A DNA stretch of 32,000 nt, taken from contig NZ_MPIY01000001.1 of assembly GCF_001953355.1 (NCBI RefSeq), positions 403,848 to 435,847 of the forward strand. Reading direction: 5' to 3'. Shown here in pieces: positions 7,826-32,000 of this stretch. How positions within the stretch are numbered: position 1 is the stretch's first letter; each line of letters opens with the position of its first letter. The position numbers and the translations under genes were made by a program. Source of the DNA: Polynucleobacter sphagniphilus. GTDB lineage: Bacteria; Pseudomonadota; Gammaproteobacteria; Burkholderiales; Burkholderiaceae. The notes under the pieces are model-generated. The model did not search any database. It saw only the letters and a list, made by a program, of their open reading frames with translations, and had not been told where the DNA came from.

Positions 7826-9885
7826 AAAGCAGCTCGAACCCCAATCATGGCGCTGCGACCCGGTTGGGGTGCGTATAAGCGTACCGTCTCTGGCGTTGTG
7901 GCATAACGAATATCTTGATTCAATAAGTTTGTCAGACGCAGATAGCCTGTCCAAGAGATGCTGTTAATTCTTTCAGTGTATGACACGCCTGCATTGAGTA
8001 GGTTGTAGCTCGGCGTGGGGCCAATCTCAAAGCTAGCTAAGCGCGTCTGCTCAAAAGCATGGATGTAAGTAGCATTCATTTTCCATTGATTTACTTGTTG
8101 GGCAATTTCAGCCCCTAAGCGTGGGGCTGGTTGCAGGGGTAAATTACCGCCACTATTAAAAGTCCCTTGAGAGGCGTCACCAAATAGGCGAGTGCCAACG
8201 CCATTTTGCTGCCAGTTGTAGGTTAATTCTCCTTCAACCCCTTTAATGGTGGCATTTGCTTGTTGGGAGACTACTACTGGATAGTTGGTATATCCATCAC
8301 CAGAGGCTGTATTTCCAGTGTAGAAGCCATAAATGTAGTTACTGAACTGATTTTGATAGATGTTGGCTTTACCTTGGATGAGTCCACTTGTTTTTTGTAT
8401 ACCCAATTCAATGTTGTGCGAAGTCTCTATTTGTAAATTGGAATTACCCACTATGTATGTGGCGGTAGCATCGTGTGGACCGAAGGCGTAAAGCTCGGGT
8501 GCACTTGGTGCCCTTTGTGAAACGGTGTAGGCTGCAGCTAGTCCATAGCCTTTAGTCACTTCGTAAATAGTTCCCAAAGAGTAGGAGCCCAAATTAAACT
8601 GACGGTTAATTAATGAAGGTGGGCTATAAGTAGAAATCGAGTCGGCGTAAACGCTGGCCTGATTGGGGTTCTGGGTAACATAGTTGTAGCGCAAACCAAG
8701 ACTATTTTTAAAGTCACCAAAATTACCTTGCTCCACCCAAAATAGCGCATTGGAATTGGTGACTGTTTGCGGAACGATATCTGCATTGCCACTAGCGATA
8801 TCGGTTGCCGTTAGTTTGGCGGTAGAGGATTGCAAGCCAACACTACCTTTCCAGCCCATCCAGGATTGATGATCTAGTACCGCGCGTAATTCTGTTGCAT
8901 CATTTACCCAATTAGTTTGCGGCACGCCGTTGTTATCAAATTCATTGTGCATGTAATGGCTATTAGAGATGCTGAATTTGAAAGCGCTAAAACCATCCAT
9001 AGGATCGCGGGTTTCATGCTGCAAATCATAGCGATTTTGCGATTGGTTAATAAATCCGCCATCAGCAGTAGGAACGCCATAGTCATGATTAAGGCGCAAT
9101 AGTGAGACCCCGGTATAACCATGATCACCAATATAAGAAGCGCCCAGCCCTAAGTTATTCTCATTATTAAAGGAGAAGGGTAGCTTGCTAGAGTAGGGCA
9201 CATTTTGCGGAACGCCGGGGCTGATTGCCCAGTTAGCATTCGGCCCACCTTGCTCTGCGTAGCCAGGGATTTGATAGTTATTGGCATTGCTAATGGCGGT
9301 ATCAATATGAAAGGCAATTGGTCCGGTGGATGTATCGACTACTGCGCTGGCGGTCTTGTCTTGATTGACGGTTTCATAGCTCGTATTTACTGACCCCGTT
9401 GGCTCCCCTGGGAGGGAGGTGGCAATGCGATCATTAATCACATTGACCAAGCCGCCGCTCGAGCCAGACCCATACATCAATGCAGATGCGCCGCGTAGGA
9501 TTTCAATTTGACGCGTACTTTGTAAGGGGTTGGCGGTAGCATGATCTGCCGAAATACTCGATACGTCACTCACCGATAGGCCATTTTCTAAAATCTGTAC
9601 CCGCGCACCTTCGAGCCCACGAATGACTGGTCTGGAAGCGCCCGCTCCAAATCCGGTTGCAGAAACCCCCAGTTCATTGGAGAGGGTGGCGCCCAGGTTG
9701 TTACCCAGCTTATTTTGCAACTCATCGCCTGACAAAACTTTGCTCGGGCTCATAAGATTATTTTCGGAGATGGCGTTCGATTCAATCACTAAGCCGCCAT
9801 TCGGATCTTCCGCTCTTGCGGAGTAAGGAAGGCTTACGCCCAAAGCGCTTAATAAAGCCAATTGATAGGGGATTCTAAATTTCAT
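7822..9885 (-). CDS. TonB-dependent outer-membrane receptor (metal-type plug motifs)
   Basis: 687 aa. Has a signal peptide, a plug region (RPVIRGLEGARVQILENG, IEILRGASALMYGSGSSGGLVNV) and a C-terminal ...IGVRAAF barrel terminus. Confidence 0.9.
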   Translation of the reverse strand: MKFRIPYQLALLSALGVSLPYSARAEDPNGGLVIESNAISENNLMSPSKVLSGDELQNKLGNNLGATLSNELGVSATGFGAGASRPVIRGLEGARVQILENGLSVSDVSSISADHATANPLQSTRQIEILRGASALMYGSGSSGGLVNVINDRIATSLPGEPTGSVNTSYETVNQDKTASAVVDTSTGPIAFHIDTAISNANNYQIPGYAEQGGPNANWAISPGVPQNVPYSSKLPFSFNNENNLGLGASYIGDHGYTGVSLLRLNHDYGVPTADGGFINQSQNRYDLQHETRDPMDGFSAFKFSISNSHYMHNEFDNNGVPQTNWVNDATELRAVLDHQSWMGWKGSVGLQSSTAKLTATDIASGNADIVPQTVTNSNALFWVEQGNFGDFKNSLGLRYNYVTQNPNQASVYADSISTYSPPSLINRQFNLGSYSLGTIYEVTKGYGLAAAYTVSQRAPSAPELYAFGPHDATATYIVGNSNLQIETSHNIELGIQKTSGLIQGKANIYQNQFSNYIYGFYTGNTASGDGYTNYPVVVSQQANATIKGVEGELTYNWQQNGVGTRLFGDASQGTFNSGGNLPLQPAPRLGAEIAQQVNQWKMNATYIHAFEQTRLASFEIGPTPSYNLLNAGVSYTERINSISWTGYLRLTNLLNQDIRYATTPETVRLYAPQPGRSAMIGVRAAF

Positions 9886-9962
9886 ACTTCACTCTTAAAA
9901 CTATTGAACTATTTCAACAGGTAAATGCACATAAATTCGCTAATAAGGCGAGGGCAATGTAA

Positions 9963-10331
9963 TTAAAGAGTGATGCTGGGGGGAGCTCGAGATTGATAGG
10001 GTGAGGCAAGAGCCTGGAAAACCGTTACCACTAAGAGCGGGGTAAAAGTGCCTGAATAAGAAAGCTCCCCGATAGAAGATTGAACATCTGGCGCAATAAA
10101 ACTGGCGAGGGTTAAGGCATCAAATAAATGGCAATCGGCTGCAGCATGAGATATGCCAAAGGAAGTGCGATCGCCAGTGTTGAACTCTAAATTAACGCCC
10201 TGGAAGCCGGCATGCGAAACGCTATGTGCAAAGCCTAAATACTGGGTGCCCAAGAGGCTAAATAGCAAAAAGCCAAGAGCGATTAACGCTCGCGTTTGCT
10301 TGCTAACTTTGCCGTTAAAAAGGGTGCTCAT
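9963..10331 (-). CDS. small signal-anchored protein upstream of the TonB-dependent receptor (DUF2946-like by size, position and His/Cys content)
   Basis: 122 aa with one N-terminal TM, plus HSVSHAG and HAAADCH. Lies 77 nt upstream of the receptor on the same strand. Confidence 0.35.
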   Translation of the reverse strand: MSTLFNGKVSKQTRALIALGFLLFSLLGTQYLGFAHSVSHAGFQGVNLEFNTGDRTSFGISHAAADCHLFDALTLASFIAPDVQSSIGELSYSGTFTPLLVVTVFQALASPYQSRAPPSITL

Positions 10332-10508: not shown

Positions 10509-10587
<79 letters not shown>

Positions 10588-10860
10588 ATTTCATATTAGT
10601 TCATATAAAAGTAGGCTTGTTGATTGTGTTCGATTGTGGCTGATCATGATCAAGCTTGAGTAGCTTTGGGTTCTCCTTGGGTCTAGCGTGGCGGATCCAG
10701 GCAGACTATCGGCGACCCTGCGACTGGGACAGGCTAGATAGAATTTTGACCCTGGCGATTTAGTGTCGGTTCGACCCGACTTTCGAGCGTCCGGTTACGT
10801 GACGGTCAGGTGGCTCTTATGGAGTGCCTTGGGGATTCTCAGAGTGGTTAATTGGTTGTG
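10588..10860 (+). repeat. island left arm X1, homologous to X2 at 25497-25770
   Basis: Shared blocks are CCTTGGGTCTAGCGTGG (10675-10691 vs 25597-25613) and GTTACGTGACGGTCAGGyGGCTCTTAT (10794-10820 vs 25704-25730). Weaker similarity begins right after the att core. Confidence 0.7.
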
Positions 10861-15374: not shown

Positions 15375-15436
15375 CATCAGGAAACCTCGAGCGTTTCATT
15401 TAACTCTTTTGATTGTTTTCCATTAAGGCTATGGCC

Positions 15437-15579
15437 GCTTATGGGTCGATCTCTGCCTGCAATACTCAATTTAGGTGAAGGTCTGCTGTGTGATAAGCAA
15501 CAGTCCATCACAGCCCTGATCCCGAAGTGTCAGGTATAACGGACCGTAAATAATTCAGGTCGCCCAAACGTAAATCTGA
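15437..15579 (+). repeat. integrase-upstream arm Z1, homologous to Z2 at 31860-32000
   Basis: Shared GCyTATGGGTCG at the start and TAAATmATTCAGGTCGCCCAAACGTAAATCTGA at the end (15547-15579 vs 31968-32000, one mismatch). Similarity in between is looser. Confidence 0.65.
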
Positions 15580-15590
15580 AATTAAGCTAA

Positions 15591-15615
15591 CAAGTGTCGT
15601 GTTTCGAGACACTTG
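15591..15615 (+). promoter_or_regulatory. hairpin/inverted repeat CAAGTGTC-N9-GACACTTG immediately upstream of the integrase ATG
   Basis: Read directly. It ends 2 nt before the ATG at 15618. Confidence 0.3.
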
Positions 15616-15617
15616 TA

Positions 15618-16826
15618 ATGAATAATTTATCCCTATTATTTTCCACTGCTACCACTGATGAAGAGCCCATCAAACTGCTTGATGGTGCCATCACCCTCTA
15701 TAAAAGACCCCATAGTCACCAATGGCAATGCCGTTTTAAGCTGTCTACGGGTGCTTGGCATTCCGCCAGTACTGGATCTGATCAAGTAGCTGAAGCCACC
15801 ACCCAAGCAATTGCCATATATGAAACCGTTAAGGTCAAGCTAGCCAGCGATCTAGCCATTAAGACACGAACCTTTCGCCAGCTAGCCGCGCAAGAACTAG
15901 CTGCTGCTGCGCGAGTGGTCCAAGCCAATCCTAATAAACGTACTCATGCGGACTATATTCATATCTATACCAAGTACCTGATCCCGTTCTTTGGTAATTA
16001 CCAGATTAATGACATTACCCAAGAAGTAGTTGATGACTATGCGGCTTGGCGCATATCTCAGATGGGTAAGGATCCCAAGTCTTATACGCAAAGGCGCCAT
16101 GCTGGCTTATATAAGCGGGTGATTGAACGGGCTAGGGCTCAGGGTTTAATTCACCAGCAACGAACTATTCCATTATTAGAAGTAGCCGGAGATAAACCTG
16201 AAGCCAGACCAGCCTTTAATCAACAAGAGGTCAGTTACTTATTGGAATACATGCGGGACTGGGAGCGTTTTGGGCGTAATCAACGCAGTAACCATATGCG
16301 TAGACTTTGCCGCGTGTATGTGGAGTTCTTGTTAGGCACAGGCATTAGGCAGGGCACCGAAAGCATGCCAATCCGCTGGAAATCGTTGCAATGGCACTGG
16401 ATAGGTGAGCAGCGGTATTTAAGAGTTTGGGTATCAGGTAAGACCGGCCCTAGGTATCTGATTGCCAAGCATTTTGTGGTTGAGGCCTTAGAGCGATTAA
16501 TTGCTTGGCAGGCTTTACCTTATCCGAACCTAGATTCTGTTATTGAAGCCAAGCTAGATCGCAGGGTATTCGTGTTTCCGGAGGGGGATGCTCCTCATAG
16601 TCTAGATAGTGTGTTTGAGAGGCTCATGGTTGAATCTGGTTTATTCAAAGATGCTACTGGCAAGAATAGAACCTTATATAGCCTGCGTCATACCTATGCC
16701 ACATTCGCACTAGCTGAAGGTGTTGATATACACACCCTAGCTAGGCAAATGGGCACTTCGACTTTAATGATTGAGCGTCATTACTCAAAACTTACTCCTA
16801 TGATGGCAGCTGAGAAGTTAGCTTAA
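15618..16826 (+). CDS. int: tyrosine-type site-specific integrase (P4-like size class)
   Basis: The C-terminal catalytic region has LLGTGIRQGTE (Arg), LRHTYATFAL (H-x-x-R) and LARQMGTSTLMIERHYSK (His/Tyr). The ATG at 15618 is preferred over the tracked GTG at 15594. Confidence 0.85.
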   Translation: MNNLSLLFSTATTDEEPIKLLDGAITLYKRPHSHQWQCRFKLSTGAWHSASTGSDQVAEATTQAIAIYETVKVKLASDLAIKTRTFRQLAAQELAAAARVVQANPNKRTHADYIHIYTKYLIPFFGNYQINDITQEVVDDYAAWRISQMGKDPKSYTQRRHAGLYKRVIERARAQGLIHQQRTIPLLEVAGDKPEARPAFNQQEVSYLLEYMRDWERFGRNQRSNHMRRLCRVYVEFLLGTGIRQGTESMPIRWKSLQWHWIGEQRYLRVWVSGKTGPRYLIAKHFVVEALERLIAWQALPYPNLDSVIEAKLDRRVFVFPEGDAPHSLDSVFERLMVESGLFKDATGKNRTLYSLRHTYATFALAEGVDIHTLARQMGTSTLMIERHYSKLTPMMAAEKLA

Positions 16827-21753: not shown

Positions 21754-21924
21754 GTCACTTAACAGGACACCATTTAGTGTCGGTTTAACCGACTCCACAC
21801 CTGCGGATGCCACACACCACACGGTCAGTTCCACATGATTCCACGGATCTCGGTGCGTATCGAACACCTGATCTTGTAAGGCTTATGTCATTGTTTCTGC
21901 TATTGATTTTGCTCATTTTTTAAG
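21754..21924 (+). repeat. island right arm Y1, near-identical to Y2 at 25281-25451
   Basis: About 170 bp alignable by eye with few mismatches. Contains the palindromic motif (21777-21794) and a run of CCAC(A/G) direct repeats. Confidence 0.85.
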
Positions 21925-21971
21925 CTTCTAAGGCGTAGGTCGCACGTTCGAATCGTGCTGGGCAGGCCAAA
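21925..21971 (+). repeat. direct repeat copy B: orphan 3' part of tRNA-Arg (GI-1 right end and GI-2 left end)
   Basis: 47/47 identical to 10541-10587. No tRNA 5' half precedes it. Confidence 0.9.
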
Positions 21972-22080
21972 TTCTCCTAATCAATAGTGTTTCAAGCCTT
22001 TTCATTGCGCCTAGTTGGTTTGATGATTGCTATGAACTTTAGAGAATACCCCCGTCGATGAATCCGACGCATTCTTAAGC

Positions 22081-23718
22081 CTACTCGACATTCCTGGAGT
22101 AAATCACTTTGCCATTTTTGATAGTGTTGACCACCTTAATATCTTTGATTGCATCTGGATCAATCGTTAAAGGATTTTGATCCAACTCCACTAAATCTGC
22201 CAACATGCCAGGCAGGATCTTACCCTTCGTATTCTCCTCGCGATACACATAAGCAGCATTACATGTGAACGCCTGCAATGCTAGGTAAGGATCCATCTTT
22301 TCCTGAGTACCCAATGTTTTTCCAGACATTGTTTTGCGATTGACTGCACTCCAAATGGTAAATAAGCAATCTGGCCCAGAAGAGGGGACATCATTATGGA
22401 TGCCGACTACTATCCCTTTGTTATGTGCTGTCACCATGGGGCAAAAATGATCGGCGCGTTCTTCGCCAACGATATCTAAATAGATATCTCCATACAACCA
22501 TATATGATTGGATAAAGTAATGGCAATAATATGATTGGCTTTGTAGTCGTCAAGCTGATCTTCCCTTGCAAAAAATGAATGGGAGATAGTCGAGCGGCGA
22601 TCTTCCGTAATCCCGGTTTCCGCAATTGCTTTTTTAATGGCGGCTAGGGCCATATCAATGCCTGCATCACCATTGCTGTAGCAAAAGAATGGGATATTTT
22701 TTTCGTAGGCCAGCTTAGTGTAGTGATCAACCTGATCTTGCGTGTAGTAAGCCATACCCCGCCAGCCATCCGGGAAGCCTGTAGTATCGCTGTAGGGTTT
22801 AGAGAGGTAAGCAAGCTTGAGCTGCGGCCCTCCATCTGTTGACATCAATATGCCTGCAACCTTAAAGCCTCGATCAACGTTGCTGTAGGCACCAAAGGAA
22901 TAGTTGGGATTCCCTTTTAGTAGGGTGTCTACCGTATCGCTCATTGGGAGGGCAATTAAATCAATTGAAATAACACCGCTATCAGATGCGAGACGCATCA
23001 ATTGAATGTCTTCAGGACTGGCTTGATAGTGCTGGGCAGTCGTAGTGCCATAGGAGGCATAAATTTTCTCTGCGCTTTGATAAGTCTTAAAAGTGAGATC
23101 CTGAGAAAATTGGCCATAAGCCGCCGCTACTGCGTTCAGATAGGGTAGCCCAATAATGATGCCCGTCATTTGATGAGTAGTGGGATCAACTACGATCGTG
23201 CCAGACTCAACTTTAGTATCTGCAGTAATACCTAGTTTTTTTAGGCCCGCTGTATTAAATAAGCCCGCTAGTGTGGAAATGTTTTGAACAAGTACCGGCG
23301 TATCTGGAAAAGCAGCATCTAAATCAGCAATGGTTAAGGGCCCGTCTTTCATCAAGCCATCCATGTACTCAGCTGCGATCAACCATCCATTTAGAAGCTT
23401 GCCGTCTTTTTTCAGTTGTGCAATCAACTCGGGTCTACTACGTGGAGGATTGTCAGCAAAGTAGCCAACATTCAAACTTAATGTTTGTTGAGCAAACAAA
23501 CCAAAGTGCCCCCAAGTGTCAATAAATCCCGGAGTTAGGGTATGTCCTTGTAAGTCATGCATCTTGACATCTGGGCTCGCTAAATCGCTTGCTTCTTGTT
23601 TGTTACCAGTGAAAGCAATTTTTCCATCTGTCACCAATACCGCTTCAACATACTCAGGTTGATCGCCAGCCATGGTCAAAATATTGCCGTTGAAGTAGAG
23701 GGTTTGATTTGATGTCAT
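22081..23718 (-). CDS. amidohydrolase-family protein (Amidohydro_3/YtcJ-like) with an atypical metal-binding motif
   Basis: 545 aa. N-terminal LYFNGNILTM...VLVTDGKIAFTG...LTPGFIDTWGH is typical of the family except that W replaces the first His. The C-terminus reads GIHNDVPSSGP ... GMLADLV. Confidence 0.75.
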   Translation of the reverse strand: MTSNQTLYFNGNILTMAGDQPEYVEAVLVTDGKIAFTGNKQEASDLASPDVKMHDLQGHTLTPGFIDTWGHFGLFAQQTLSLNVGYFADNPPRSRPELIAQLKKDGKLLNGWLIAAEYMDGLMKDGPLTIADLDAAFPDTPVLVQNISTLAGLFNTAGLKKLGITADTKVESGTIVVDPTTHQMTGIIIGLPYLNAVAAAYGQFSQDLTFKTYQSAEKIYASYGTTTAQHYQASPEDIQLMRLASDSGVISIDLIALPMSDTVDTLLKGNPNYSFGAYSNVDRGFKVAGILMSTDGGPQLKLAYLSKPYSDTTGFPDGWRGMAYYTQDQVDHYTKLAYEKNIPFFCYSNGDAGIDMALAAIKKAIAETGITEDRRSTISHSFFAREDQLDDYKANHIIAITLSNHIWLYGDIYLDIVGEERADHFCPMVTAHNKGIVVGIHNDVPSSGPDCLFTIWSAVNRKTMSGKTLGTQEKMDPYLALQAFTCNAAYVYREENTKGKILPGMLADLVELDQNPLTIDPDAIKDIKVVNTIKNGKVIYSRNVE

Positions 23719-23737: not shown

Positions 23738-24580
23738 TTAATGTGAAAAAGCATATGTAAGCCCGATGCGCCCACCCCAACCTTGCGCGCCACCTTGGTT
23801 GGTATTGACGGTGTAATAACGAGCACCGATTGTAAAAAGCAGAGGGAGGTCACCCACTTCAATCAATTTGCTGCCCATTAAATTGATTGGATAGGCGTGA
23901 GCACCAGTATCAATATTCGTGATCGATTCACAATCAAGAGTAATGTTCCCATATCTTTTGGTGATGTAGGTGATAAAAGGTTGAAATCCAACATTATTGG
24001 CACTAGGGCCATTGAGTGGCATTGCTCCAAGGCCAAACGATTGGTATGCATAAGCACCCACAATCCAATCCTCGCTTCGATGAATGGCACCCATGCTGTA
24101 TCCCACAGCATTTTGTGAGCTCCCATACATGGCGGGCATATTGGTGCCGATCTGTACCATTGGACCAAAACCAAATGAGTTTTTTAGTCTAGTCTCATTG
24201 GATTCGGTAAAAAAACTTTCAATAATGACTGGTTTAAATCCCGAGCTAGAGTAACCATCGAAATTATTGAAGGATTGATAGGTGATCTGGGGATGCACTA
24301 CATAGCTGTAGTCAGAATTAATACGATAAGGAAGCCAGGGCTCTATTTGGGTGTATTGAGTTGAGCCTTGATGTCCTAGGCCTACTTTTTGGTCAAAGTT
24401 GATATAAATTGGTACTGAGGCGACATCATCCTGAGCTTGTAATTGCCGTTCAGTAGAAATAAGCCGTTCTTTTCCCGGGGTGAGTGTGTCGAAAAATGTA
24501 TTTGCATCTTGAGCGAGCGCAAGCTTGAAGTTAGACAACATCAGGACGGTCAGTAGTGCTTTGAATTGATGCATCTGCAT
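23738..24580 (-). CDS. outer-membrane beta-barrel protein (transporter-like, possibly of the 'MetA-pathway of phenol degradation' type)
   Basis: 280 aa. Has a signal peptide (LALA-QDA), alternating aromatic/Gly beta-strand pattern and a ...GRIGLTYAFSH terminus. Ends 19 nt upstream of the amidohydrolase. Confidence 0.6.
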   Translation of the reverse strand: MQMHQFKALLTVLMLSNFKLALAQDANTFFDTLTPGKERLISTERQLQAQDDVASVPIYINFDQKVGLGHQGSTQYTQIEPWLPYRINSDYSYVVHPQITYQSFNNFDGYSSSGFKPVIIESFFTESNETRLKNSFGFGPMVQIGTNMPAMYGSSQNAVGYSMGAIHRSEDWIVGAYAYQSFGLGAMPLNGPSANNVGFQPFITYITKRYGNITLDCESITNIDTGAHAYPINLMGSKLIEVGDLPLLFTIGARYYTVNTNQGGAQGWGGRIGLTYAFSH

Positions 24581-24699
24581 GATGTTTAAGGTAGGGCTTC
24601 GCAGACTTGAAGGATCAAAATTATTCTAATAATAAGGTATTATCAAAAAAAATTGCAGTAGATTTAGCTATGTAATTCCCTGTTTTGAACGGATCTTAT

Positions 24700-25218
24700 A
24701 TGAAATTTAGCTTTTTAGGACACATGAAGGAAATGTTAAGGGAGCTGCCAATAGTAGCTACCTACCTATCACTCTGGTTTATTGCGATTACTTTTTATAA
24801 TCAAGCTGCCGTTCATATGCCAGAAAAAGGAATTGAGTCCTATGGGTTTGCGGTGATTCAGGCCTTGGTGATGTCAAAAATCATGCTCACCGTAGAAATG
24901 ATTGTTCCTGTTGGAGTGATATTCAACCCTAAGGTGAAATTCACTATTTATTTAGCAGTTTTAGTTCGTACAACCCTCGCATCTATCGTTGCTCTTCTGC
25001 TGCGTTACTCTGCTGCTGGAGCAGAGGGCTTTTTTAAACATGAGGGATTTATTGAATCCATGCGAAATTTTTGTGATGGGGACATTGCCCATATTTTGGC
25101 GCTAACATGTTTCTATTGGCTGATTATCTTGCCCTATATCGCTTATCGCTTTCTTTTGCATCTTGCAGGCAAAAATGACTTGGCATCATATTTATTGGAA
25201 AAAAGATCCCAGAATTAA
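24700..25218 (+). CDS. hypothetical integral membrane protein
   Basis: About 172 aa from the ATG at 24700 (the track starts at TTG 24685). Four hydrophobic segments. Confidence 0.5.
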   Translation: MKFSFLGHMKEMLRELPIVATYLSLWFIAITFYNQAAVHMPEKGIESYGFAVIQALVMSKIMLTVEMIVPVGVIFNPKVKFTIYLAVLVRTTLASIVALLLRYSAAGAEGFFKHEGFIESMRNFCDGDIAHILALTCFYWLIILPYIAYRFLLHLAGKNDLASYLLEKRSQN

Positions 25219-25280: not shown

Positions 25281-25451
25281 GTCACGTAACGCGACACTAT
25301 TTAGTGTCGGTTCGACCGACTCCACACCTGCGGATGCCACACACCACACGGTCAGTTCCACATGATTCCACGGATCTCGGTGCGTATCGAACACCTGATC
25401 TTGTAAGGCTTATGTCATTGTCTAAGCTATTGTTTTTGCTCATTTTTAAAG
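25281..25451 (+). repeat. island right arm Y2
   Basis: Near-identical to 21754-21924. Starts with GTCACGTAAC and contains the palindromic motif at 25304-25321. Confidence 0.85.
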
Positions 25452-25496
25452 CTTCTAAGGCGTAGGTCGCACGTTCGAATCGTGCTGGGCAGGCCA
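25452..25496 (+). repeat. direct repeat copy C: orphan 3' part of tRNA-Arg
   Basis: 45/45 identical to 10541-10585. Confidence 0.9.
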
Positions 25497-25770
25497 CTTA
25501 TCTACCATTTATTGTCATTCTAGGCTTGTTTCAGGCTGGTTAATTGTGCTCAATTGGCTCAATCATGGCCAGAGCTTGGCCGGTGTTAGTGAGTGGCCTT
25601 GGGTCTAGCGTGGAGAATCCTGGGGCACTATGTACTCAGGATGACCTCATAAGGCTCGGGGCAAAGCTTTTAGTATATGTTTGACCCGACTTTAAGGTGT
25701 CCTGTTACGTGACGGTCAGGCGGCTCTTATAAAGAACCTTGCGGACGCTCGAGGCAGGGTAATTAGAGGT
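25497..25770 (+). repeat. island left arm X2
   Basis: See X1 for the shared blocks. The palindromic motif is degenerate here (25671-25691). Confidence 0.7.
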
Positions 25771-25895: not shown

Positions 25896-26723
25896 ATGTG
25901 TCGACCTTCAAAGATTTGGCTATGCCTACTGGCTGCATGGACCTGCCTAAGTTTTGCACAGAGCAGTGAGACTTCCCCGTACCGACCTTCTTTCTTTTTA
26001 AGCCCATATCAAGTTGAATGGGACTCAAATATTGATAATATCCGTACGAATTACACCATCAATTCTCCTGTTTTAAAGAATTCTGCGAACTCAATCAATA
26101 ATAACTATGCGCAGAAAATTGCAATCGGATTGCCTGATAATTACTCGGTAGGTATTTCAGATCTATATGTTCAGTCTATCGTCTCTAATCCTTTGAATAT
26201 CAACGCGGCTACACCTGGGTTTAAGAATCCTGTTGTATCGGCCGCCAAAATATGGACTATTAATAGCGATGTTTTATTAAAAGCACTTGGAAGTGTTCAG
26301 CCCAATTTGGGAGTTAAGGCTGGCGTTAGCACCTATAACCTGGGGATCTCCGCAATTTTTATTGGCCCTAATGACTGGCAAACAAGTCTTGGCATTAATG
26401 AAACAACGAATGATGCTGACTATGGCGGCGCTCCCACGCTATCTGGGACAATTTCTAAGCAAATTGGTTTATATGTAATTAATGCTACGGCTGGCGTTAC
26501 ACATTTTCCATCGATCTTAATGACTACTGGGTATGCATCATCATCTTATCTATATTCAGGCACTTTGGAGCTTAGTCGCCAACTGACTGATCAGCTTTGG
26601 CTAGGCGCAAGTTACAGCATTGGAAGCAATCAATACACCTACACCCAAAATTTTATGAGCATTCCTTTTAACAACAGAACGCTATATAACTCAGTTGGCG
26701 CAAGCCTAAAGGTACTTTTCTAG
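25896..26723 (+). CDS. outer-membrane beta-barrel protein of unknown family
   Basis: 275 aa. Signal peptide (CLSFA-QS), S/N/Y/G-rich alternating strands and a C-terminal ...SLKVLF with terminal Phe. Confidence 0.6.
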   Translation: MCRPSKIWLCLLAAWTCLSFAQSSETSPYRPSFFLSPYQVEWDSNIDNIRTNYTINSPVLKNSANSINNNYAQKIAIGLPDNYSVGISDLYVQSIVSNPLNINAATPGFKNPVVSAAKIWTINSDVLLKALGSVQPNLGVKAGVSTYNLGISAIFIGPNDWQTSLGINETTNDADYGGAPTLSGTISKQIGLYVINATAGVTHFPSILMTTGYASSSYLYSGTLELSRQLTDQLWLGASYSIGSNQYTYTQNFMSIPFNNRTLYNSVGASLKVLF

Positions 26724-27436
26724 CTGTTAACAATAGATAGGGGTAGGCATAGCTGATAGCCTGTGCCCCAAACGGATCGTATGATACGGCTCTCTGCCCC
26801 ACTCAACATAGGTTGAATTTTCTTTCTCAATCTACTGATGATATTTTCCAAGGAACGCTTTGTCATCGCCTCGGACATTAATTGTTCGGAGAGTATTTCG
26901 CAAATGCTTTCTGACTCTAGGCAATGATTGGGCGCTTGGGATAGTGTCGACAATAAGAGGGACTCAGCAGCTAATAAGGGGATCTTAGACTCTCCATTTG
27001 GCGGGATGAGTTGACCTGATTGGAGTTGCAAGATCCAGCCAGAAGGTGTTGATTCCACAACCCGTCTTGATAGGCCATGAATTGCGGCTAATAATTCCTG
27101 GGATGGGGTTGGCTTGGGAAGGTAAATATCTGCGCCATGCTCATAACTCTTGATGCGGTCAGCCAATGCGGTACGTGCCGTGAGTATTACAATGCCAATT
27201 TTTGGATGTGTTTTTCGAACAGACTGCGCAATTTCCAAACCTGACTGTCCTGGTAAGTTCAGGTCTAAAATAATGATGTCTAAAACCTCCATAAGTAGAA
27301 GGTCATTTAAACCAAGGCTATTGTTCGCCTCATAGACTTTTAATTGATGTGCTTGTAAAAATTGACTTAATTCTTCACGCAAAATGGCATCATCTTCAAC
27401 AATCGCAATCTTTATTGGATTTGACGACTTGTTCAT
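26720..27436 (-). CDS. OmpR-family two-component response regulator
   Basis: 238 aa. The receiver domain has IAIVEDD, IIILDLNLPG and LPKP. The winged-helix output has ISRLRKKI...VWGTGYQL. Shares an ATGA overlap with the kinase gene. Confidence 0.85.
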   Translation of the reverse strand: MNKSSNPIKIAIVEDDAILREELSQFLQAHQLKVYEANNSLGLNDLLLMEVLDIIILDLNLPGQSGLEIAQSVRKTHPKIGIVILTARTALADRIKSYEHGADIYLPKPTPSQELLAAIHGLSRRVVESTPSGWILQLQSGQLIPPNGESKIPLLAAESLLLSTLSQAPNHCLESESICEILSEQLMSEAMTKRSLENIISRLRKKIQPMLSGAESRIIRSVWGTGYQLCLPLSIVNS

Positions 27437-29337
27437 GCTGGTAGCTCTACAAGAAAAGTGATTTCATTAGTAATATAGCGATATTCAATTGTTCCGCCAA
27501 GAACATGACAAAGCTCTTTGCAGATATAAAGCCCTAAACCAGAACCCCTGGTTTTTTGGGCCAGGGGATGGCGATAGAAACGCTCAAATACAGATTTTGG
27601 ATCTGGTGCCAAGCCTGGATGAATGGTATTGGTAATCGAAATACAAATCCTAGGCTCAGTATTTCCAGTCAATTCCTCGGCCATGACTTTAAGCGTGGTC
27701 TTAGCTGGTGAGTATTTCAAACCATTCTCGATGAGGTTACTCAGAATAATTTGTAAAAACTGCGGATCTGATCGAATGCTCAGATGGTCATCTACATTGA
27801 AATCTACTGCTTGTTTGCCTTGGCGGTTTTCAATGAGAGCAGAAAGCATGCCCTTAATATTGACTTCTTCTAGTCTTAACGGAAATGTTTTTTGATCTAT
27901 TAGATTCATTAAGCTGCAGCGCTCAATAATGGCATCCATATTTAGTATCGACTGGTTAATATTGCGTAAACGTTGCCGGTCATTAGGGTTGCTCGTATTA
28001 ATAGATTGGCCAAGTGTATCAACCGCTAGACTAATTGAGGCTAAGGGATTTTTTAATTCATGGGCGAGCATATCAATAAGTGTTGTGCGCTCCTTGAGGA
28101 GTTTGGTCTCAAACTCGGATCTTAGGCGAGTTTCTGTTAGCGCCGATTTCACCTCTACTAACTCTTTGCGGACCAGGCGATTTTGATAAACAATAATCGA
28201 GAGCATCACAAGAGGACTGACAAAGTCAGTGATGCGAGCTAGATAAACAGGGGTCTGGGTATAGCCCTGTAATGGGAATAGTACCGCTATCACGGCTAAA
28301 AGAATCAGGACAATGGATATGCAAAATCCGGCAATTAAAACAATTTGAAATGATTTTTCTATATGAGGCGTTTTGGTGATGGCAATAATTTGAGCTACCG
28401 GTGCAATGAGGATGCCGATCAGCATGAGGGGGTTGGAGATATTATTTTTCTCAGCGCCAACCAGCAATAAGCAGGCAACTACCAAAATGTAAATCGTCCA
28501 ACAAGAGGGCTTGTACCAACCCGGAGTTTTGTAGGGTAATAGAAAAGCTTGGGATACCCAAACCCATAACCCTAGCCTTAGGCAAAGCGCCCAATTAAAT
28601 ATGAGCCCATTAAGTAGAGGCTCTTGCTTGAATATATAAAGCGCCAAAATGCCACTTCCAGCAAGCGTGCATAAGATGAGATTGGCTACAGAGACCCCAA
28701 ATCTTGCCATAACGGCACTTGGATTTAGGCCAAAGCTCACGATTGAAAAAACCAGGATGGCAAAGAGGATGCCAACTTGAGCGCCAATGCCCAGAAGTCG
28801 CTCTGAAACTTGTATTCCAGAACTTGGCCAGGAAGACGCTGAAATTACTATGTGAGTTAGGCTGGAGGCATCGATTTTGAGATAGTAAGTATTGTGGTTT
28901 TCTGGAGTGGGAGACGCAATGAAGAGGTGTGCACCAATATCCCTATGGGACCCATCATTAGCTAATCGGCTGCCTGCTTTTTGAGATGTCCAGCCTTTAC
29001 TGGTGAGTTGAAAGAGTTCAATTTTTTTTAAGAAATAAGGCCCCACCCGAATGGCAAAAGCAGCTCTATCGATTGGTTGATCAAAAATTTGTACTCGTAT
29101 CCAGCGGGGCGACTCGGCAAGACCGGAATTTAAGGGGGAGTAATTGGGCTGGTAATCGCATTGAATAGCCTGCTCAATTGTTACTGGCGCAGTCTTTGCT
29201 TGACAGTAATCAATACGGTAATTTGGAGTACTAAGACTACCAGCAGTTGCTTCTGCAGCAATCACCAAGCAGGCTGCCACTGCGAATAAGTAGCAAAGCA
29301 GGTATTTGCTTATATTCCAGATTGATCCCTTTTTCAT
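27433..29337 (-). CDS. sensor histidine kinase with a 7TMR-DISM-type extracellular domain and a 7-TM module
   Basis: 634 aa. Order: signal/periplasmic domain (WIRVQIF..., YYLKIDAS), about 7 TM segments, H-box LAHELKNPLASI, then an ATPase region with NLIENGLKYS and GSGLGLYICKE. Confidence 0.85.
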   Translation of the reverse strand: MKKGSIWNISKYLLCYLFAVAACLVIAAEATAGSLSTPNYRIDYCQAKTAPVTIEQAIQCDYQPNYSPLNSGLAESPRWIRVQIFDQPIDRAAFAIRVGPYFLKKIELFQLTSKGWTSQKAGSRLANDGSHRDIGAHLFIASPTPENHNTYYLKIDASSLTHIVISASSWPSSGIQVSERLLGIGAQVGILFAILVFSIVSFGLNPSAVMARFGVSVANLILCTLAGSGILALYIFKQEPLLNGLIFNWALCLRLGLWVWVSQAFLLPYKTPGWYKPSCWTIYILVVACLLLVGAEKNNISNPLMLIGILIAPVAQIIAITKTPHIEKSFQIVLIAGFCISIVLILLAVIAVLFPLQGYTQTPVYLARITDFVSPLVMLSIIVYQNRLVRKELVEVKSALTETRLRSEFETKLLKERTTLIDMLAHELKNPLASISLAVDTLGQSINTSNPNDRQRLRNINQSILNMDAIIERCSLMNLIDQKTFPLRLEEVNIKGMLSALIENRQGKQAVDFNVDDHLSIRSDPQFLQIILSNLIENGLKYSPAKTTLKVMAEELTGNTEPRICISITNTIHPGLAPDPKSVFERFYRHPLAQKTRGSGLGLYICKELCHVLGGTIEYRYITNEITFLVELPA

Positions 29338-29410
29338 GGGACCTAGTTTATTTCATAAAAACAACATTTTCGACCCCATTGAAAAAGGAATTCATATTTA
29401 TGGAGCTGAA

Positions 29411-29445
29411 TGAGAGGAAGTGAGAGGAACATAAATGATGTTCCT
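29411..29445. promoter_or_regulatory. direct repeat TGAGAGGAA x2 (10-bp phasing) followed by inverted repeat AGGAACAT-N5-ATGTTCCT; candidate response-regulator site
   Basis: Repeats at 29411-29419 and 29421-29429. Inverted repeat at 29425-29432 and 29438-29445. The site is central in the 163-bp divergent gap between the kinase and the secreted-protein gene. Confidence 0.4.
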
Positions 29446-29500
29446 GTAAAAAGACAAACAACGTAAGTGGTTTATGTATCGCCAAACTTAAAGGGTCAAA

Positions 29501-30289
29501 TTGAAAAAAAATCAAGCAATTACCAGCGTAGCGGCCTTACTGATGCTATTAAGTATTGGAATAGCGAACGCTGACAGTAATAGTAATTATTCAGGTTTAG
29601 TCACTAATGTAACGGATCAAGTGACGGATTTACTCTCTGCTGCATCCTATCAGGGCGGAAATATCAGTAATATTGCAATTAATACAGCGGATATTAAGTC
29701 TAGAGTAGATATTACGGGTGCAAATATCACCACTGGTGGTTCGGGTGCATCCGCCTGGGCAACCTCTACTCAAACTTTAACCAGCTCACAGTCGAATACA
29801 AATGATTTAAGCAATCAATTTTCTCAGAGCAAAATAAATCAATTGAGTGGGGCTGGGAACTCTAGTACAACGAATAATATTGCTTCTACTGCTTCTACTG
29901 CAAGTGCCAATATCACCGCTACTGCAATTGATAACAACTTTAGTGCAACATCTATTGGTGCCATGAATAGTGGCAATATCGATATTACTCAGGCTAGCAC
30001 GAATGGCAAGGCAGGGAACCTTAGCATTGAAGGTCTTAGTCTTGATTCGCATAGCCAGTCAGTTTCGGCTGGTCAATTAGAGCTACTTAACGGATATGCA
30101 ACTTTTAATCCAAGCGTAGCAAATTTAGCTATCAATACGAGTGCTATTTCATCTGAAGTTAAGGTAAATGCATCATCTGATATCAGTTTGGCGAATACAA
30201 GCATATCCGCTGCTTCTGTTGGAGCAATGAACACTGGGAATATTACAGTTACAGCACCAACACCTGCCGTATCAACTGGTCATCATTAA
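29501..30289 (+). CDS. secreted S/T/N/A/G-rich repeat protein; candidate fibre or surface subunit
   Basis: 262 aa with a TTG start and signal peptide (GIANA-DS). Internal repeats N[IL]AINT[AS]xIxSxV and SA[TA]S[IV]GAMN[ST]GNIx[IV]T. No Cys and few charged residues. Confidence 0.7.
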   Translation: MKKNQAITSVAALLMLLSIGIANADSNSNYSGLVTNVTDQVTDLLSAASYQGGNISNIAINTADIKSRVDITGANITTGGSGASAWATSTQTLTSSQSNTNDLSNQFSQSKINQLSGAGNSSTTNNIASTASTASANITATAIDNNFSATSIGAMNSGNIDITQASTNGKAGNLSIEGLSLDSHSQSVSAGQLELLNGYATFNPSVANLAINTSAISSEVKVNASSDISLANTSISAASVGAMNTGNITVTAPTPAVSTGHH

Positions 30290-30307
30290 TATTGTTTAGT
30301 GAGCCTC

Positions 30308-30733
30308 ATGAAAAAAGCACGTCACATATCATGTCTAGGTTTCTTGCTGACCTTAGTTCTGGTGAGTATGGCGCAAGCTGTTTTTGCAGCTGGTGCTTCA
30401 AATGATTGGAATAATTCCTGGGGCTCAAGCCTAGACTCTTCCGCAAGAGCTGTGATGATTCAGCAGGCTAATGCTATTGCACTACGGGAGTCTGATTACT
30501 ATGGTAGTTTTGGCCCTGCCACCTCAAACTATGTGAATTCTGGAAACAGTAGCTATGTTAATAACTCCACAAATAATTCACAAACAAGTAATACCAATCC
30601 TCTCACATACAGCACGACTTCTGTAGGAGTAATGAATTCTCCAACTGCTACCATTAATGGAAATAATAGTAGTTTGAATACTACAAACTCTACGAGTAGT
30701 AGTGGTGGCATGCAGAGCACAATTAGTCATTAG
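30308..30733 (+). CDS. secreted S/N/T-rich small protein sharing a motif with the preceding gene
   Basis: About 141 aa from the ATG at 30308 (the track uses GTG 30299). Signal peptide (AVFA-AG). Has TTSVGVMNSPTATI and an N/S/T-rich tail. Confidence 0.65.
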   Translation: MKKARHISCLGFLLTLVLVSMAQAVFAAGASNDWNNSWGSSLDSSARAVMIQQANAIALRESDYYGSFGPATSNYVNSGNSSYVNNSTNNSQTSNTNPLTYSTTSVGVMNSPTATINGNNSSLNTTNSTSSSGGMQSTISH

Positions 30734-30751
30734 TTCTTACAACGGTCTTCA

Positions 30752-31816
30752 ATGACGGGGAAAAGGCCATGTTACCTAATAACGCTCTTTGTGGCAGTCT
30801 TGCTATCGGGCTGTCAGGGCTATTCAATTATCACTACTACACGTAATGAGGATGTGCCCTTAGTAAAAGGCCCTCCCATAAGAGATATCGTAACTCCATT
30901 CGATAGGGCTCTAATATGTCTTCGTCCTAAGGTTAATAAAAATATTACTTTTTCAGTCGGGGCAGTTCTTGATCAAACTGGCAAGGAGCAGTTAACTGAT
31001 GGAGGGCTCGGAAAATTTGTGACTCAAGGGGCTGGTGATATGTTGCAATCTGCCCTTTATGAGGGTGGTGTAAGCCTTTTAAACCGGAGGGATCCCAGAG
31101 TCCTTGAGGCCGAATTGAAGTGGGGTTTGCAAGACCAAAGACGGATTATTCCGTCGGATTACTTCATTACTGGGAGTATTAATAGTTTAGACATCATGCC
31201 TGGTGGTGGAGTTCAAACTGAAATTGGTGGCATGGGCCCCACGTATAGTCAAATGCGAATGTTGGTGGGGATTGATTTAGCCCTAACAAGTTCGAAAACT
31301 AGTCAAATTATTGCTAATGTAGCATTACAAAAACAAATCTTTGCTACGGACTTTAATGTTGCAATGGGGAATTTTATAGGGGTGACCTTATTCAATGTTA
31401 ACGCCGGATATAAAGAGCGGGAAGCAATCCATTTCGCATTAAGGCAGATGATTAATTTGGCAACCTTTGAATTATTAACTCAAATTATGAATCCTAGAGA
31501 TTACTCAGATTGTAGAAAGTTGATTGACAAAGTCTCCGACGGCTCCATTGAGAATACAAAAACTGCCAAACTTTCATATGAGTATGAGCAAAGCTTGATT
31601 GCAGTAGCCAACACCAAAGAGTCAAATGTAAAATCTTTTACACCGCCAGAGCAAAATCAGGATTTGAGTGACCAATCCATTCAGAGGGCAGTCTCTCCGA
31701 ATGCATATAACCCGAGTAATAGTGCAAATCAGCCTAATAAGGCGCTAACTCCCGATGGTTCAGGCGGGACTGATTTTTTATTAAATAAGCAGGAAATCAT
31801 ACAATTTTCAAAGTAA
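30752..31816 (+). CDS. CsgG/HfaB-family outer-membrane secretion lipoprotein with an extended low-complexity C-terminus
   Basis: Lipobox LLSGC. Segments ITFSVGAVLDQTGK, GAGDMLQSALYEGG, YFITGSINSLD and VGIDLALTSSKTSQIIANV run colinear with E. coli CsgG (FVSVYNIQDETGQ, ATAMLVTALKDS, IMVEGSIIGYE, IAVNLRVVNVSTGEILSSV). Confidence 0.85.
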   Translation: MTGKRPCYLITLFVAVLLSGCQGYSIITTTRNEDVPLVKGPPIRDIVTPFDRALICLRPKVNKNITFSVGAVLDQTGKEQLTDGGLGKFVTQGAGDMLQSALYEGGVSLLNRRDPRVLEAELKWGLQDQRRIIPSDYFITGSINSLDIMPGGGVQTEIGGMGPTYSQMRMLVGIDLALTSSKTSQIIANVALQKQIFATDFNVAMGNFIGVTLFNVNAGYKEREAIHFALRQMINLATFELLTQIMNPRDYSDCRKLIDKVSDGSIENTKTAKLSYEYEQSLIAVANTKESNVKSFTPPEQNQDLSDQSIQRAVSPNAYNPSNSANQPNKALTPDGSGGTDFLLNKQEIIQFSK

Positions 31817-31859: not shown

Positions 31860-32000
31860 GCCTATGGGTCGTATTGAGTCTGCCATTAGCAAGTAGGGTG
31901 ATGGCTGCTTTGCATCAGCATTGACCATTCGCACCCTTTGAAGTCTTGGTGTCGGTTTAACCGACTCTAAATCATTCAGGTCGCCCAAACGTAAATCTGA
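31860..32000 (+). repeat. arm Z2, truncated by the window edge
   Basis: Homologous to 15437-15579. Contains a perfect palindromic motif at 31949-31966. Confidence 0.65.

Follow-up and report, generated by a model that had tools for sequence, protein, structure and literature searches.

A putative HfaB-like secretion module and its two partner protein families in the cargo of a tRNA-Arg island of Polynucleobacter sphagniphilus

Introduction

Secretion by the CsgG family is understood almost only from curli, with the holdfast anchor of Caulobacter as a poorly resolved second case. The locus described here lies in a 32,000-nucleotide (nt) stretch of the Polynucleobacter sphagniphilus genome (contig NZ_MPIY01000001.1 of assembly GCF_001953355.1, positions 403,848 to 435,847; hereafter the window), and raises the question of what a CsgG/HfaB-family lipoprotein, and two secreted proteins encoded beside it, may be doing as the cargo of an island in a planktonic bacterium. 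A first-pass annotation, made from the letters of the window, had read the six genes at 25896-31816 as a minimal CsgG-type secretion or fibre system with novel substrates and a two-component system of its own. We find that the lipoprotein is, by model scores, closer to HfaB than to CsgG, that its two partners belong to protein families which accompany it across three proteobacterial classes, and that these three genes probably form an Hfa/curli-like module whose regulator is exchangeable. A search of the literature on HfaB, CsgG and type VIII secretion returned only papers on curli, holdfast and phage CsgG, and the trio is not described in them; an apparent 'hfaB' match in a paper on aggregation in A. 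baumannii was due to strain names such as HFab23.

Results

The putative channel lipoprotein

A check of the window for open reading frames (ORFs) found all six where the first-pass annotation had placed them. Three of these, termed the trio from here on, are central to the argument (fetched loci from other genomes are cited by L numbers):

29501-30289, plus strand: P4, secreted protein of 262 amino acids (aa) rich in Ser, Ala, Asn and Thr, the "D-position" partner, whose homologues adjoin the channel gene
30308-30733, plus strand: P5, secreted 141-aa protein, the "A-position" partner, with an alternative GTG start at 30299
30752-31816, plus strand: CsgG/HfaB-family outer-membrane lipoprotein of 354 aa, a putative secretion channel, recognised by Pfam CsgG, NCBIfam HfaB and a lipobox

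That the last of these belongs to the CsgG family is borne out by Pfam (CsgG, PF03783; 58.6 bits against a gathering cut-off of 20.8, E 7e-16, residues 59-246) and by the lipobox LLSGC within MTGKRPCYLITLFVAVLLSGC, whose C21 is invariant across the alignment of the clade; the C-terminal tail of ~100 aa is of low complexity. Its designation as a CsgG-type channel, however, is in need of amendment. The best NCBIfam match is HfaB (NF037935, 92.1 bits), and the whole clade scores 68-99 bits on this model, on which E. coli CsgG itself reaches 37 bits, whereas a model of E. coli CsgG gives the clade ~20 bits at most, where members are detected at all. Because the scores on the HfaB model far exceed those on the E. 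coli CsgG model (92 against ~20 bits), the putative channel is, as judged from these models, HfaB-like rather than CsgG-like. Against E. coli CsgG chains (3x2r, 4uv3 and others), a profile of the clade gives an alignment at chain residues 129-233 with an E value of 2e-4, the region of the transmembrane hairpins. Altogether 938 homologues were detected, and those at 45-58% identity come from Acinetobacter, Thauera, Aureimonas and Ochrobactrum/Brucella, where they are labelled 'CsgG/HfaB family' or 'HfaB protein'. Very long C-terminal extensions are present in the homologues of loci L037 (743 aa) and L007 (508 aa).

Conserved linkage of the trio

One genome per GTDB species was scanned with the channel alignment, which gave 79 loci, and local searches with hidden Markov models (HMMs) were made around the 78 complete channel genes among them. 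The first-pass annotation had made consistent linkage of this channel clade to proteins of the P4 and P5 kind a test of its reading, and the survey finds such linkage: a P5-like ORF lies immediately upstream of the channel gene in 77 of 78 cases, often overlapping it or within 25 nt, and a P4-like ORF adjoins it in 75 (immediately downstream in 73, upstream in two, both Polynucleobacter). The three loci without a P4-like ORF comprise two contig ends and one divergent Aureimonas protein in which the motif is visible by eye. Acinetobacter, Thauera, Methylophilales, Brucella and Aureimonas are represented among others, and the linkage extends over the Alpha-, Beta- and Gammaproteobacteria. The order small protein, channel, mid-size protein prevails (73/78), and the order P4, P5, channel is confined to Polynucleobacter. 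In A. haemolyticus and Thauera, for instance, a small gene overlaps the 5' end of the channel gene and a gene for a 200-260-aa product lies 3' of it, the products being related to P5 and P4, respectively, both by eye and by statistics.

By profile and by neighbourhood, P4 and P5 are therefore members of two large unannotated families that accompany an HfaB-like channel, and the earlier view of novel substrates and a minimal system particular to this island is not supported in that form. Partners of the channel clade are annotated 'hypothetical' everywhere; the channel family is known and annotated, but the partner families and their universal linkage to it appear to be undescribed. Within Polynucleobacter, the exact channel protein and the same six-gene cargo occur in two NCBI assemblies and two sequencing runs. 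The gaps from P4 to P5 and from P5 to the channel gene are 18 nt each, and a divergent spacer of 163 bp separates P4 from the kinase gene. Such conservation and synteny across species signify far more than chance ORFs.

Some loci carry the module in more than one copy. A. kookii (L039, 1073-8805) carries two full sets of small, channel and mid-size genes and, in addition, a third pair of small and mid-size genes that lacks a channel gene in between, and Acinetobacter sp. UBA3106 (L044, 4248-8861) has two sets, one with a truncated channel gene. Genes related to cyclic di-GMP adjoin the module in three unrelated contexts, namely a PAS-GGDEF protein with an MshEN-type ATPase (L005, 1026-5851), an EAL protein on a Brucella plasmid (L006, 7081-7842) and an EAL protein on a Variovorax plasmid (L096, 821-1933), and these neighbours hint at a role in biofilm formation or adhesion.

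P4 and P5

Both partners carry signal peptides of the signal peptidase I (SPase I) type, consist to 63-66% of Ser, Thr, Asn, Ala, Gly and Gln, and have no Cys in the mature part; for P5, other assemblies use the ATG at 30308 (141 aa). Neither has a Pfam or NCBIfam match, Curlin_rpt included, and scans of all six ORFs against the same two databases returned no match of the CsgE, CsgF, CsgC or CsgD type, in agreement with what had been noted at first pass. P4 contains two copies of a motif pair, N-x-A-x-N-T..I...V.V / S-x-G-A-x-N-T-G-x-I-x-V, separated by variable low-complexity linkers, and the N, G and A columns of the motif are invariant in the family alignment. The conserved N-domain of P5 consists of W-x3-W, a predicted helix L.QA..I and then DYY, and its C-terminal segment bears a beta motif T-S-V-G-x-x-N...I.I.G..N. 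What the two proteins have in common is just the S-x-G-x-x-N motif (TS(I/V)GxxN; hhalign E 0.002).

A single-sequence search with P4 finds Polynucleobacter proteins only (95% identity to a P. sphagniphilus protein, ~90% to P. paneuropaeus proteins), and BLASTP against the Acinetobacter protein encoded downstream of the channel gives E 2e-5. Identities across Polynucleobacter strains are 95/90/90/89/42% for P4, 100/100/95/95/45% for P5 and 100/100/99/96/73% for the channel protein, making P4 the most divergent of the trio; its fast divergence fits what might be expected of a surface-exposed major subunit. A HMMER search with the P5 profile against 1.84 billion representatives yielded no fewer than 150 clusters at the 50% identity level, of which 79 have E values below 1e-10, and nearly all the matches are small secreted proteins. 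Among 130 of these representatives we found no Pfam or NCBIfam family and no Curlin_rpt, and 20 distant ones, looked up by source, were unnamed or, where named, 'hypothetical'. Searched against all PDB sequences, the P5- and P4-family profiles gave nothing below E 0.6, and hhalign comparisons of the P5 family with E. coli CsgA, CsgB and CsgF (CsgF, E 0.34), and of the P4 family with CsgA, were not significant. AlphaFold2 returned unusable models, with a mean predicted local distance difference test (pLDDT) score of 52 for P5 (20-sequence alignment) and 44 for P4 (19 sequences). By eye, the N-domain of P5 bears a likeness to the N-terminal plug peptide of CsgF; one of the 130 family members matched Pfam CsgF (E 0.004, about the chance rate), and none of 48 small proteins from the second clade described next did so; we have rejected the likeness as evidence and keep it only as an idea.

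A second clade of HfaB-like channels

Clade II, known from a Variovorax paradoxus plasmid (CP063168) and from soil and water metagenome contigs, resembles the trio in that a small protein with a homologous N-domain is encoded upstream of an HfaB-like lipoprotein: the P5-family HMM finds such a secreted protein directly upstream at nearly every locus, and the N-domains of the P5 family and of the clade II small proteins align in hhalign with a probability of 97.3% (E 2.7e-11). An EAL gene is likewise nearby in the Variovorax plasmid. The clade differs in that its channels are much nearer to true HfaB (195 bits for the Variovorax plasmid homologue, 198-232 for the metagenomic relatives), and in that a protein of >1000 aa, labelled 'S-layer family' by NCBI in the Variovorax plasmid, often lies downstream in place of the P4-type protein. 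Its small proteins (L096, L099-L176), unlike P5, have invariant cysteines and a conserved C-terminal end, ...ALN-x2-Q-x-NSG-x-Q-x-A-x-V-x-GS-x-AC-x-FG-x-LN. To the eye this motif is curlin-like in its spacing of Q, N, G and A, but among 48 of these proteins there was no Curlin_rpt match, and hhalign against CsgA, CsgB and CsgF was not significant. At locus L168 (3956-5272; VFQP010005086.1), an HfaB-like protein of 232 bits is fused to a C-terminal OmpA/Pal-type peptidoglycan-binding domain.

Taken together, the neighbourhoods indicate that HfaB-like channels are constantly accompanied by a P5-type small protein in two clades, which between them bracket a range of similarity to true HfaB. On this ground HfaA would probably be a divergent member of the P5-type family as well. 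NCBIfam scans of P5, P4, their relatives (130 P5-family representatives among them) and 48 clade II proteins gave no HfaA or HfaD match, although whether NCBIfam has an HfaA model was not established. A tblastn search of plasmids returned no Caulobacterales, and a metagenome scan seeded with the sequences closest to HfaB reached at most 232 bits and never 300. A scan of viral contigs found only distant phage CsgG; two IMG/VR contigs (L092, 5992-6780; L093, 3637-4425) encode a CsgG with 209 bits on the E. coli CsgG model that is unrelated to the trio clade, and phage-borne csgG has been discussed in papers on pelagiphages and on an OM43 methylophage.

Regulators beside the trio

The genes divergent from the trio, together with a repeat in the spacer, are as follows:

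26720-27436, minus strand: OmpR-family response regulator (Response_reg PF00072, E 2e-23; Trans_reg_C PF00486, E 4e-10)
27433-29337, minus strand: 7TMR-DISMED2 sensor histidine kinase (DISMED2, HisKA and HATPase_c by Pfam; multi-transmembrane block)
29411-29430, plus strand: two direct copies in tandem, TGAGAGGAA(G)TGAGAGGAA(C), recurring every 10 bp and lying 71 bp upstream of P4

The divergent two-component system was correctly recognised at first pass. By coordinates, the kinase stop codon and the regulator start codon overlap by 4 nt. The best NCBIfam match of the regulator is OmpR, under the equivalog cut-off. In the kinase, the 7TMR-DISMED2 domain (PF07696) covers residues 42-160 with 37.6 bits against a cut-off of 22 (E 2.5e-9), and hydropathy shows a signal or transmembrane segment, a periplasmic domain of ~150 aa and then six to seven hydrophobic segments within residues 182-382; the Pfam model of the 7TM region (7TMR-DISM_7TM) has no match in the kinase at E <= 0.1. 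Domains of the 7TMR-DISMED2 family have been proposed to bind carbohydrates.

The system is not, however, an intrinsic part of the module. The kinase is intact in the window and in L087 and L089; in L088 (5135-7029) and L090 (1693-3587), where the cargo is otherwise near-identical, it is split into ORFs of 330 and 213 aa. In P. meluiroseus (L008, 2996-3160) an N-terminal remnant is all that is left of it, beside an intact trio, and in P. paneuropaeus and strain AP-Capit the trio lies 3' of a divergent TetR gene and not of a two-component system. On a Brucella plasmid, the trio is accompanied by a kinase-regulator pair together with OMP_b-brl and EAL proteins. Because the two-component system is replaced by TetR, split or reduced to a remnant elsewhere, the genomes compared argue that the trio is the functional unit, that its regulator is exchangeable, and that the two-component system is its "own" in this type of island only.

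The TGAGAGGAA tandem repeat is the sole match in the window (0.02 expected by chance), and it is kept in every copy of the cargo that has, or has had, the two-component system and is not found in the TetR-linked promoter of P. paneuropaeus; this candidate operator is probably a binding site of the OmpR-type regulator. In P. paneuropaeus CP049635 the spacer of the TetR-linked trio (L094, 9548-10001) contains two AAACCGACCGCTTGAT boxes, and an extra Gly-rich secreted ORF of 75 aa (9764-9991), which the window does not have, lies just 5' of the P4 homologue. A scan for promoter and terminator consensus sequences gave fewer matches than shuffled sequence and was uninformative.

Island context and neighbouring genes

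As the first-pass annotation had claimed, the six genes lie on an island, between the arms X2 and Z2. The relevant features are:

25452-25506, plus strand: copy of the 3' part of tRNA-Arg(TCT), an attachment-site (att)-type direct repeat (family D2) at the left border of the cargo island
25597-25750, plus strand: X2 arm, backbone sequence in common with the first island (10675-10840; repeat families D7 and D3, 79-83% identity)
31954-32000, plus strand: Z2 arm, backbone sequence that runs past the end of the window (repeat family D5, 89% identity to Z1 at 15533-15579)

The window has two tRNA genes, tRNA-Pro and tRNA-Arg(TCT), the latter at 10509-10585, and family D2 has three copies (10541-10595, 21925-21979 and 25452-25506). 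In the first island the arms enclose an HPP-CBS protein, a PAS protein, a ClC channel and a MarR regulator, and Z1 is followed by an integrase gene (15594-16826); the integrase of the cargo island would fall outside the window, beyond its end. In a second Polynucleobacter (L009) a homologous integrase lies immediately 3' of the channel gene, and in P. meluiroseus (L008) the sequence 3' of the channel gene is similar to window positions 15433-15688. The six genes are the cargo between like backbone arms of a tandem island array. This array, at tRNA-Arg(TCT), occupies 10509-32000, and two of its islands have like X and Z arms and the same integrase type but unrelated cargo. Ahead of two of the tRNA-Arg 3'-end copies lies a repeat of 216 nt (21754-21969 and 25281-25496; 95% identity). 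Between the second and third copies lie genes for an amidohydrolase (22081-23718), a 280-aa secreted protein (23738-24580, minus strand) and a 177-aa multi-transmembrane protein (24685-25218, plus strand), the last two with no family match.

The remaining cargo gene is the following:

25896-26723, plus strand: 275-aa secreted protein, putatively outer-membrane, with a signal peptide and a C-terminal ...LKVLF; family unassigned

It has no Pfam, NCBIfam or PDB match, and its earlier description as an outer-membrane beta-barrel is plausible, although as a guess and not a result. L087 and L089, which also carry the six-gene cargo, encode the protein with 100% identity; apart from such identical copies no fetched locus has a homologue, and it stands beside the trio in no other genus. 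OMP_b-brl or OmpA proteins that come after the trio in Brucella, Aureimonas and L037 are unrelated to it.

Discussion

The closest known counterpart of the trio is the HfaA-HfaB-HfaD system of Caulobacter. The channel protein has HfaB as its best model match, the prevailing gene order in its relatives (small secreted protein, channel, mid-size secreted protein) is that of hfaA-hfaB-hfaD, and the substrates are without curlin repeats. The sizes of P5 and P4 also fit those of HfaA and HfaD. The trio differs in that the Polynucleobacter order is permuted, hfs polysaccharide genes are absent near the trio and from the cargo in the window, it occurs outside the Caulobacterales and on a mobile island, and the likening of P5 and P4 to HfaA and HfaD is by gene position only; HfaA and HfaD, moreover, have cysteines (10.1101/2022.07.20.500906), which mature P4 and P5 do not. 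In Caulobacter, HfaB is needed for the surface localisation of HfaA and HfaD, which form multimers resistant to sodium dodecyl sulfate (PMC6707917; bioRxiv 10.1101/2022.07.20.500906), and HfaD is described as weakly similar to S-layer proteins and adhesins (PMC6707917).

With E. coli curli the trio has in common the Pfam CsgG domain, the lipoprotein nature of the channel protein, the region that aligns to CsgG chain residues 129-233, and two Sec-dependent secreted partners rich in Gln, Asn, Gly and Ser with short beta-strand repeats, one small and one larger, which is reminiscent of a nucleator or anchor and a major subunit. Unlike curli, it is without Curlin_rpt, CsgE, CsgF, CsgC and CsgD, and is putatively regulated by a two-component system or TetR and not by CsgD. 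The Fap system of Pseudomonas (FapF, FapB/FapC) is alike in concept, with a dedicated outer-membrane channel and minor and major repeat-containing subunits, but FapF is an unrelated beta-barrel family, and the six cargo proteins have no Fap-related Pfam match. The three-gene cluster of A. baumannii (D1G37_12595-12605) shares with the trio its NCBI family label (CsgG/HfaB), its three-gene operon and a link to matrix or biofilm; its channel relative belongs to a different clade, however, its partners are two lipoproteins (GNA1162/DUF799-like), and its inferred role is in poly-N-acetylglucosamine (PNAG) and pili. Deletion of the CsgG/HfaB-family gene in A. baumannii UPAB1 lowered PNAG and Cup pili (bioRxiv 10.1101/2021.05.19.444899).

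Given these likenesses, we consider it probable, though well short of certain, that the core of the cargo is a three-gene, Hfa/curli-like (type VIII-like) secretion module which builds a surface polymer or anchor. P4 and P5, which have the necessary signal peptides, would be exported by Sec, and the CsgG/HfaB-family lipoprotein would form an oligomeric channel by which they then pass the outer membrane. With its conserved N-domain, and a gene that is always coupled to the channel gene, P5 may be the channel-proximal partner and act as anchor or nucleator, while P4, with its two beta-repeat units carrying ladders of Asn, Gly and Ala, may be the principal surface subunit, evolving fast and multimerising on P5. 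Such a module would make a fibre or anchor at the cell surface and so promote adhesion or aggregation, and in this island the trio would be under the control of the divergent 7TMR-DISMED2 kinase and OmpR-type regulator, probably by way of the TGAGAGGAA repeat.

Several observations weigh against this proposal. At 92 bits against an equivalog cut-off of 300, the channel protein is HfaB-like and not an HfaB equivalog, and HfaA has been stated to occur in the Caulobacterales only (HfaE preprint, bioRxiv 10.1101/2022.07.20.500906). No similarity of P4 or P5 to CsgA, CsgB, CsgF or any PDB chain could be detected, the AlphaFold2 models of both proteins are too poor to show a beta-solenoid, and the channel clade is known from sequences alone. 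Since the A. baumannii member of the family affects PNAG and pili and not amyloid export, membership in the channel family does not fix the substrate. Finally, two assemblies have a split kinase gene and P. meluiroseus has lost the kinase, so that the trio can dispense with control by the two-component system.

Of the alternatives, a strict holdfast-type anchor, in which P5 and P4 would tether to the outer membrane an exopolysaccharide made elsewhere in the genome and form no autonomous fibre, deserves the most attention, and we regard it as unlikely but worth keeping in mind. The HfaB-like character of the channel protein and the hfaA-hfaB-hfaD order of its relatives speak in its favour, as does the 7TMR-DISMED2 domain of the kinase, given the carbohydrate binding proposed for that family; the published function of Hfa is indeed the anchoring of polysaccharide (PMC6707917; 10.1101/2022.07.20.500906). 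However, the cargo and the inspected loci beside the trio hold no genes of polysaccharide synthesis or export, the trio moves as a self-contained cassette, and the likeness of P5 and P4 to HfaA and HfaD is one of gene position. It is less probable still that the lipoprotein is an envelope scaffold and not a conduit, with the trio modulating other surface structures or envelope properties. The CsgG clan also includes non-channel lipoproteins. The UPAB1 deletion phenotype (10.1101/2021.05.19.444899) is in line with such a role, but the A. baumannii cluster is of another clade and encodes two GNA1162-like lipoproteins in place of secreted proteins rich in Asn, Ser and Thr. Against a scaffold, too, the partners of the trio carry SPase-I-type signal peptides, and their repeat motifs are of the kind usual in subunits of exported polymers; the part best conserved with CsgG is chain residues 129-233, the transmembrane-hairpin region.

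Two further possibilities address the standing of the cargo itself. It could be a decaying or inert hitch-hiker with no current function in the host, as the split kinase of L088 and L090 and the remnant in P. meluiroseus might be taken to indicate; yet in the window every one of the six ORFs is intact, genomes that have lost the regulator still keep the trio, and identity across several strains and species is 95-100% for P5 and the channel protein, with P4 being variable, which suggests constraint on P5 and the channel and not decay, so that we hold this explanation to be quite improbable. The original proposal of a one-off type VIII-like system, minimal and novel, with substrates specific to the island and a kinase dedicated to surface sensing, drew on the lack of a Pfam or NCBIfam family or curlin repeats in P4 and P5, and would accord with the restriction of P4 to Polynucleobacter in single-sequence searches. 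Profile and neighbourhood analysis nevertheless places both families beside the channel clade in many genera, and other Polynucleobacter have TetR in place of the two-component system or have lost it, and we now give this proposal hardly any credence.

A broader conjecture may be offered, although we consider it more doubtful than not. A P5-type protein and an HfaB-like lipoprotein may together represent a large, unrecognised branch of CsgG-family (type VIII) secretion in Proteobacteria, in which the N-domain of the small protein would dock to the channel and anchor at the surface, functionally like CsgF/CsgB, and display interchangeable cargo, either P4-type proteins with an Asn ladder or giant S-layer-like proteins. 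Caulobacter Hfa would then be one specialised offshoot, and the Polynucleobacter module would amount to a plug-in cassette whose regulators can be swapped.

The present findings add to the curli-based picture a class of HfaB-like channels with a strictly co-encoded small partner and a repeat-protein cargo, spread over at least two clades and three proteobacterial classes and carried on plasmids and islands. For research on holdfast and curli, they provide a comparative set that includes culturable Acinetobacter, Brucella/Ochrobactrum, Thauera and Polynucleobacter, and in which the function of the small partner and the recognition of substrates in systems that lack CsgE and CsgF can be studied. 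In freshwater ecology, the trio is a concrete candidate for a trait of adhesion or aggregation that varies between strains of a model planktonic bacterium, one with a sensor that can be identified and an operator that can be proposed; if the conjecture is true, the module would allow individual strains of Polynucleobacter, a planktonic bacterium, to turn to aggregation or attachment.

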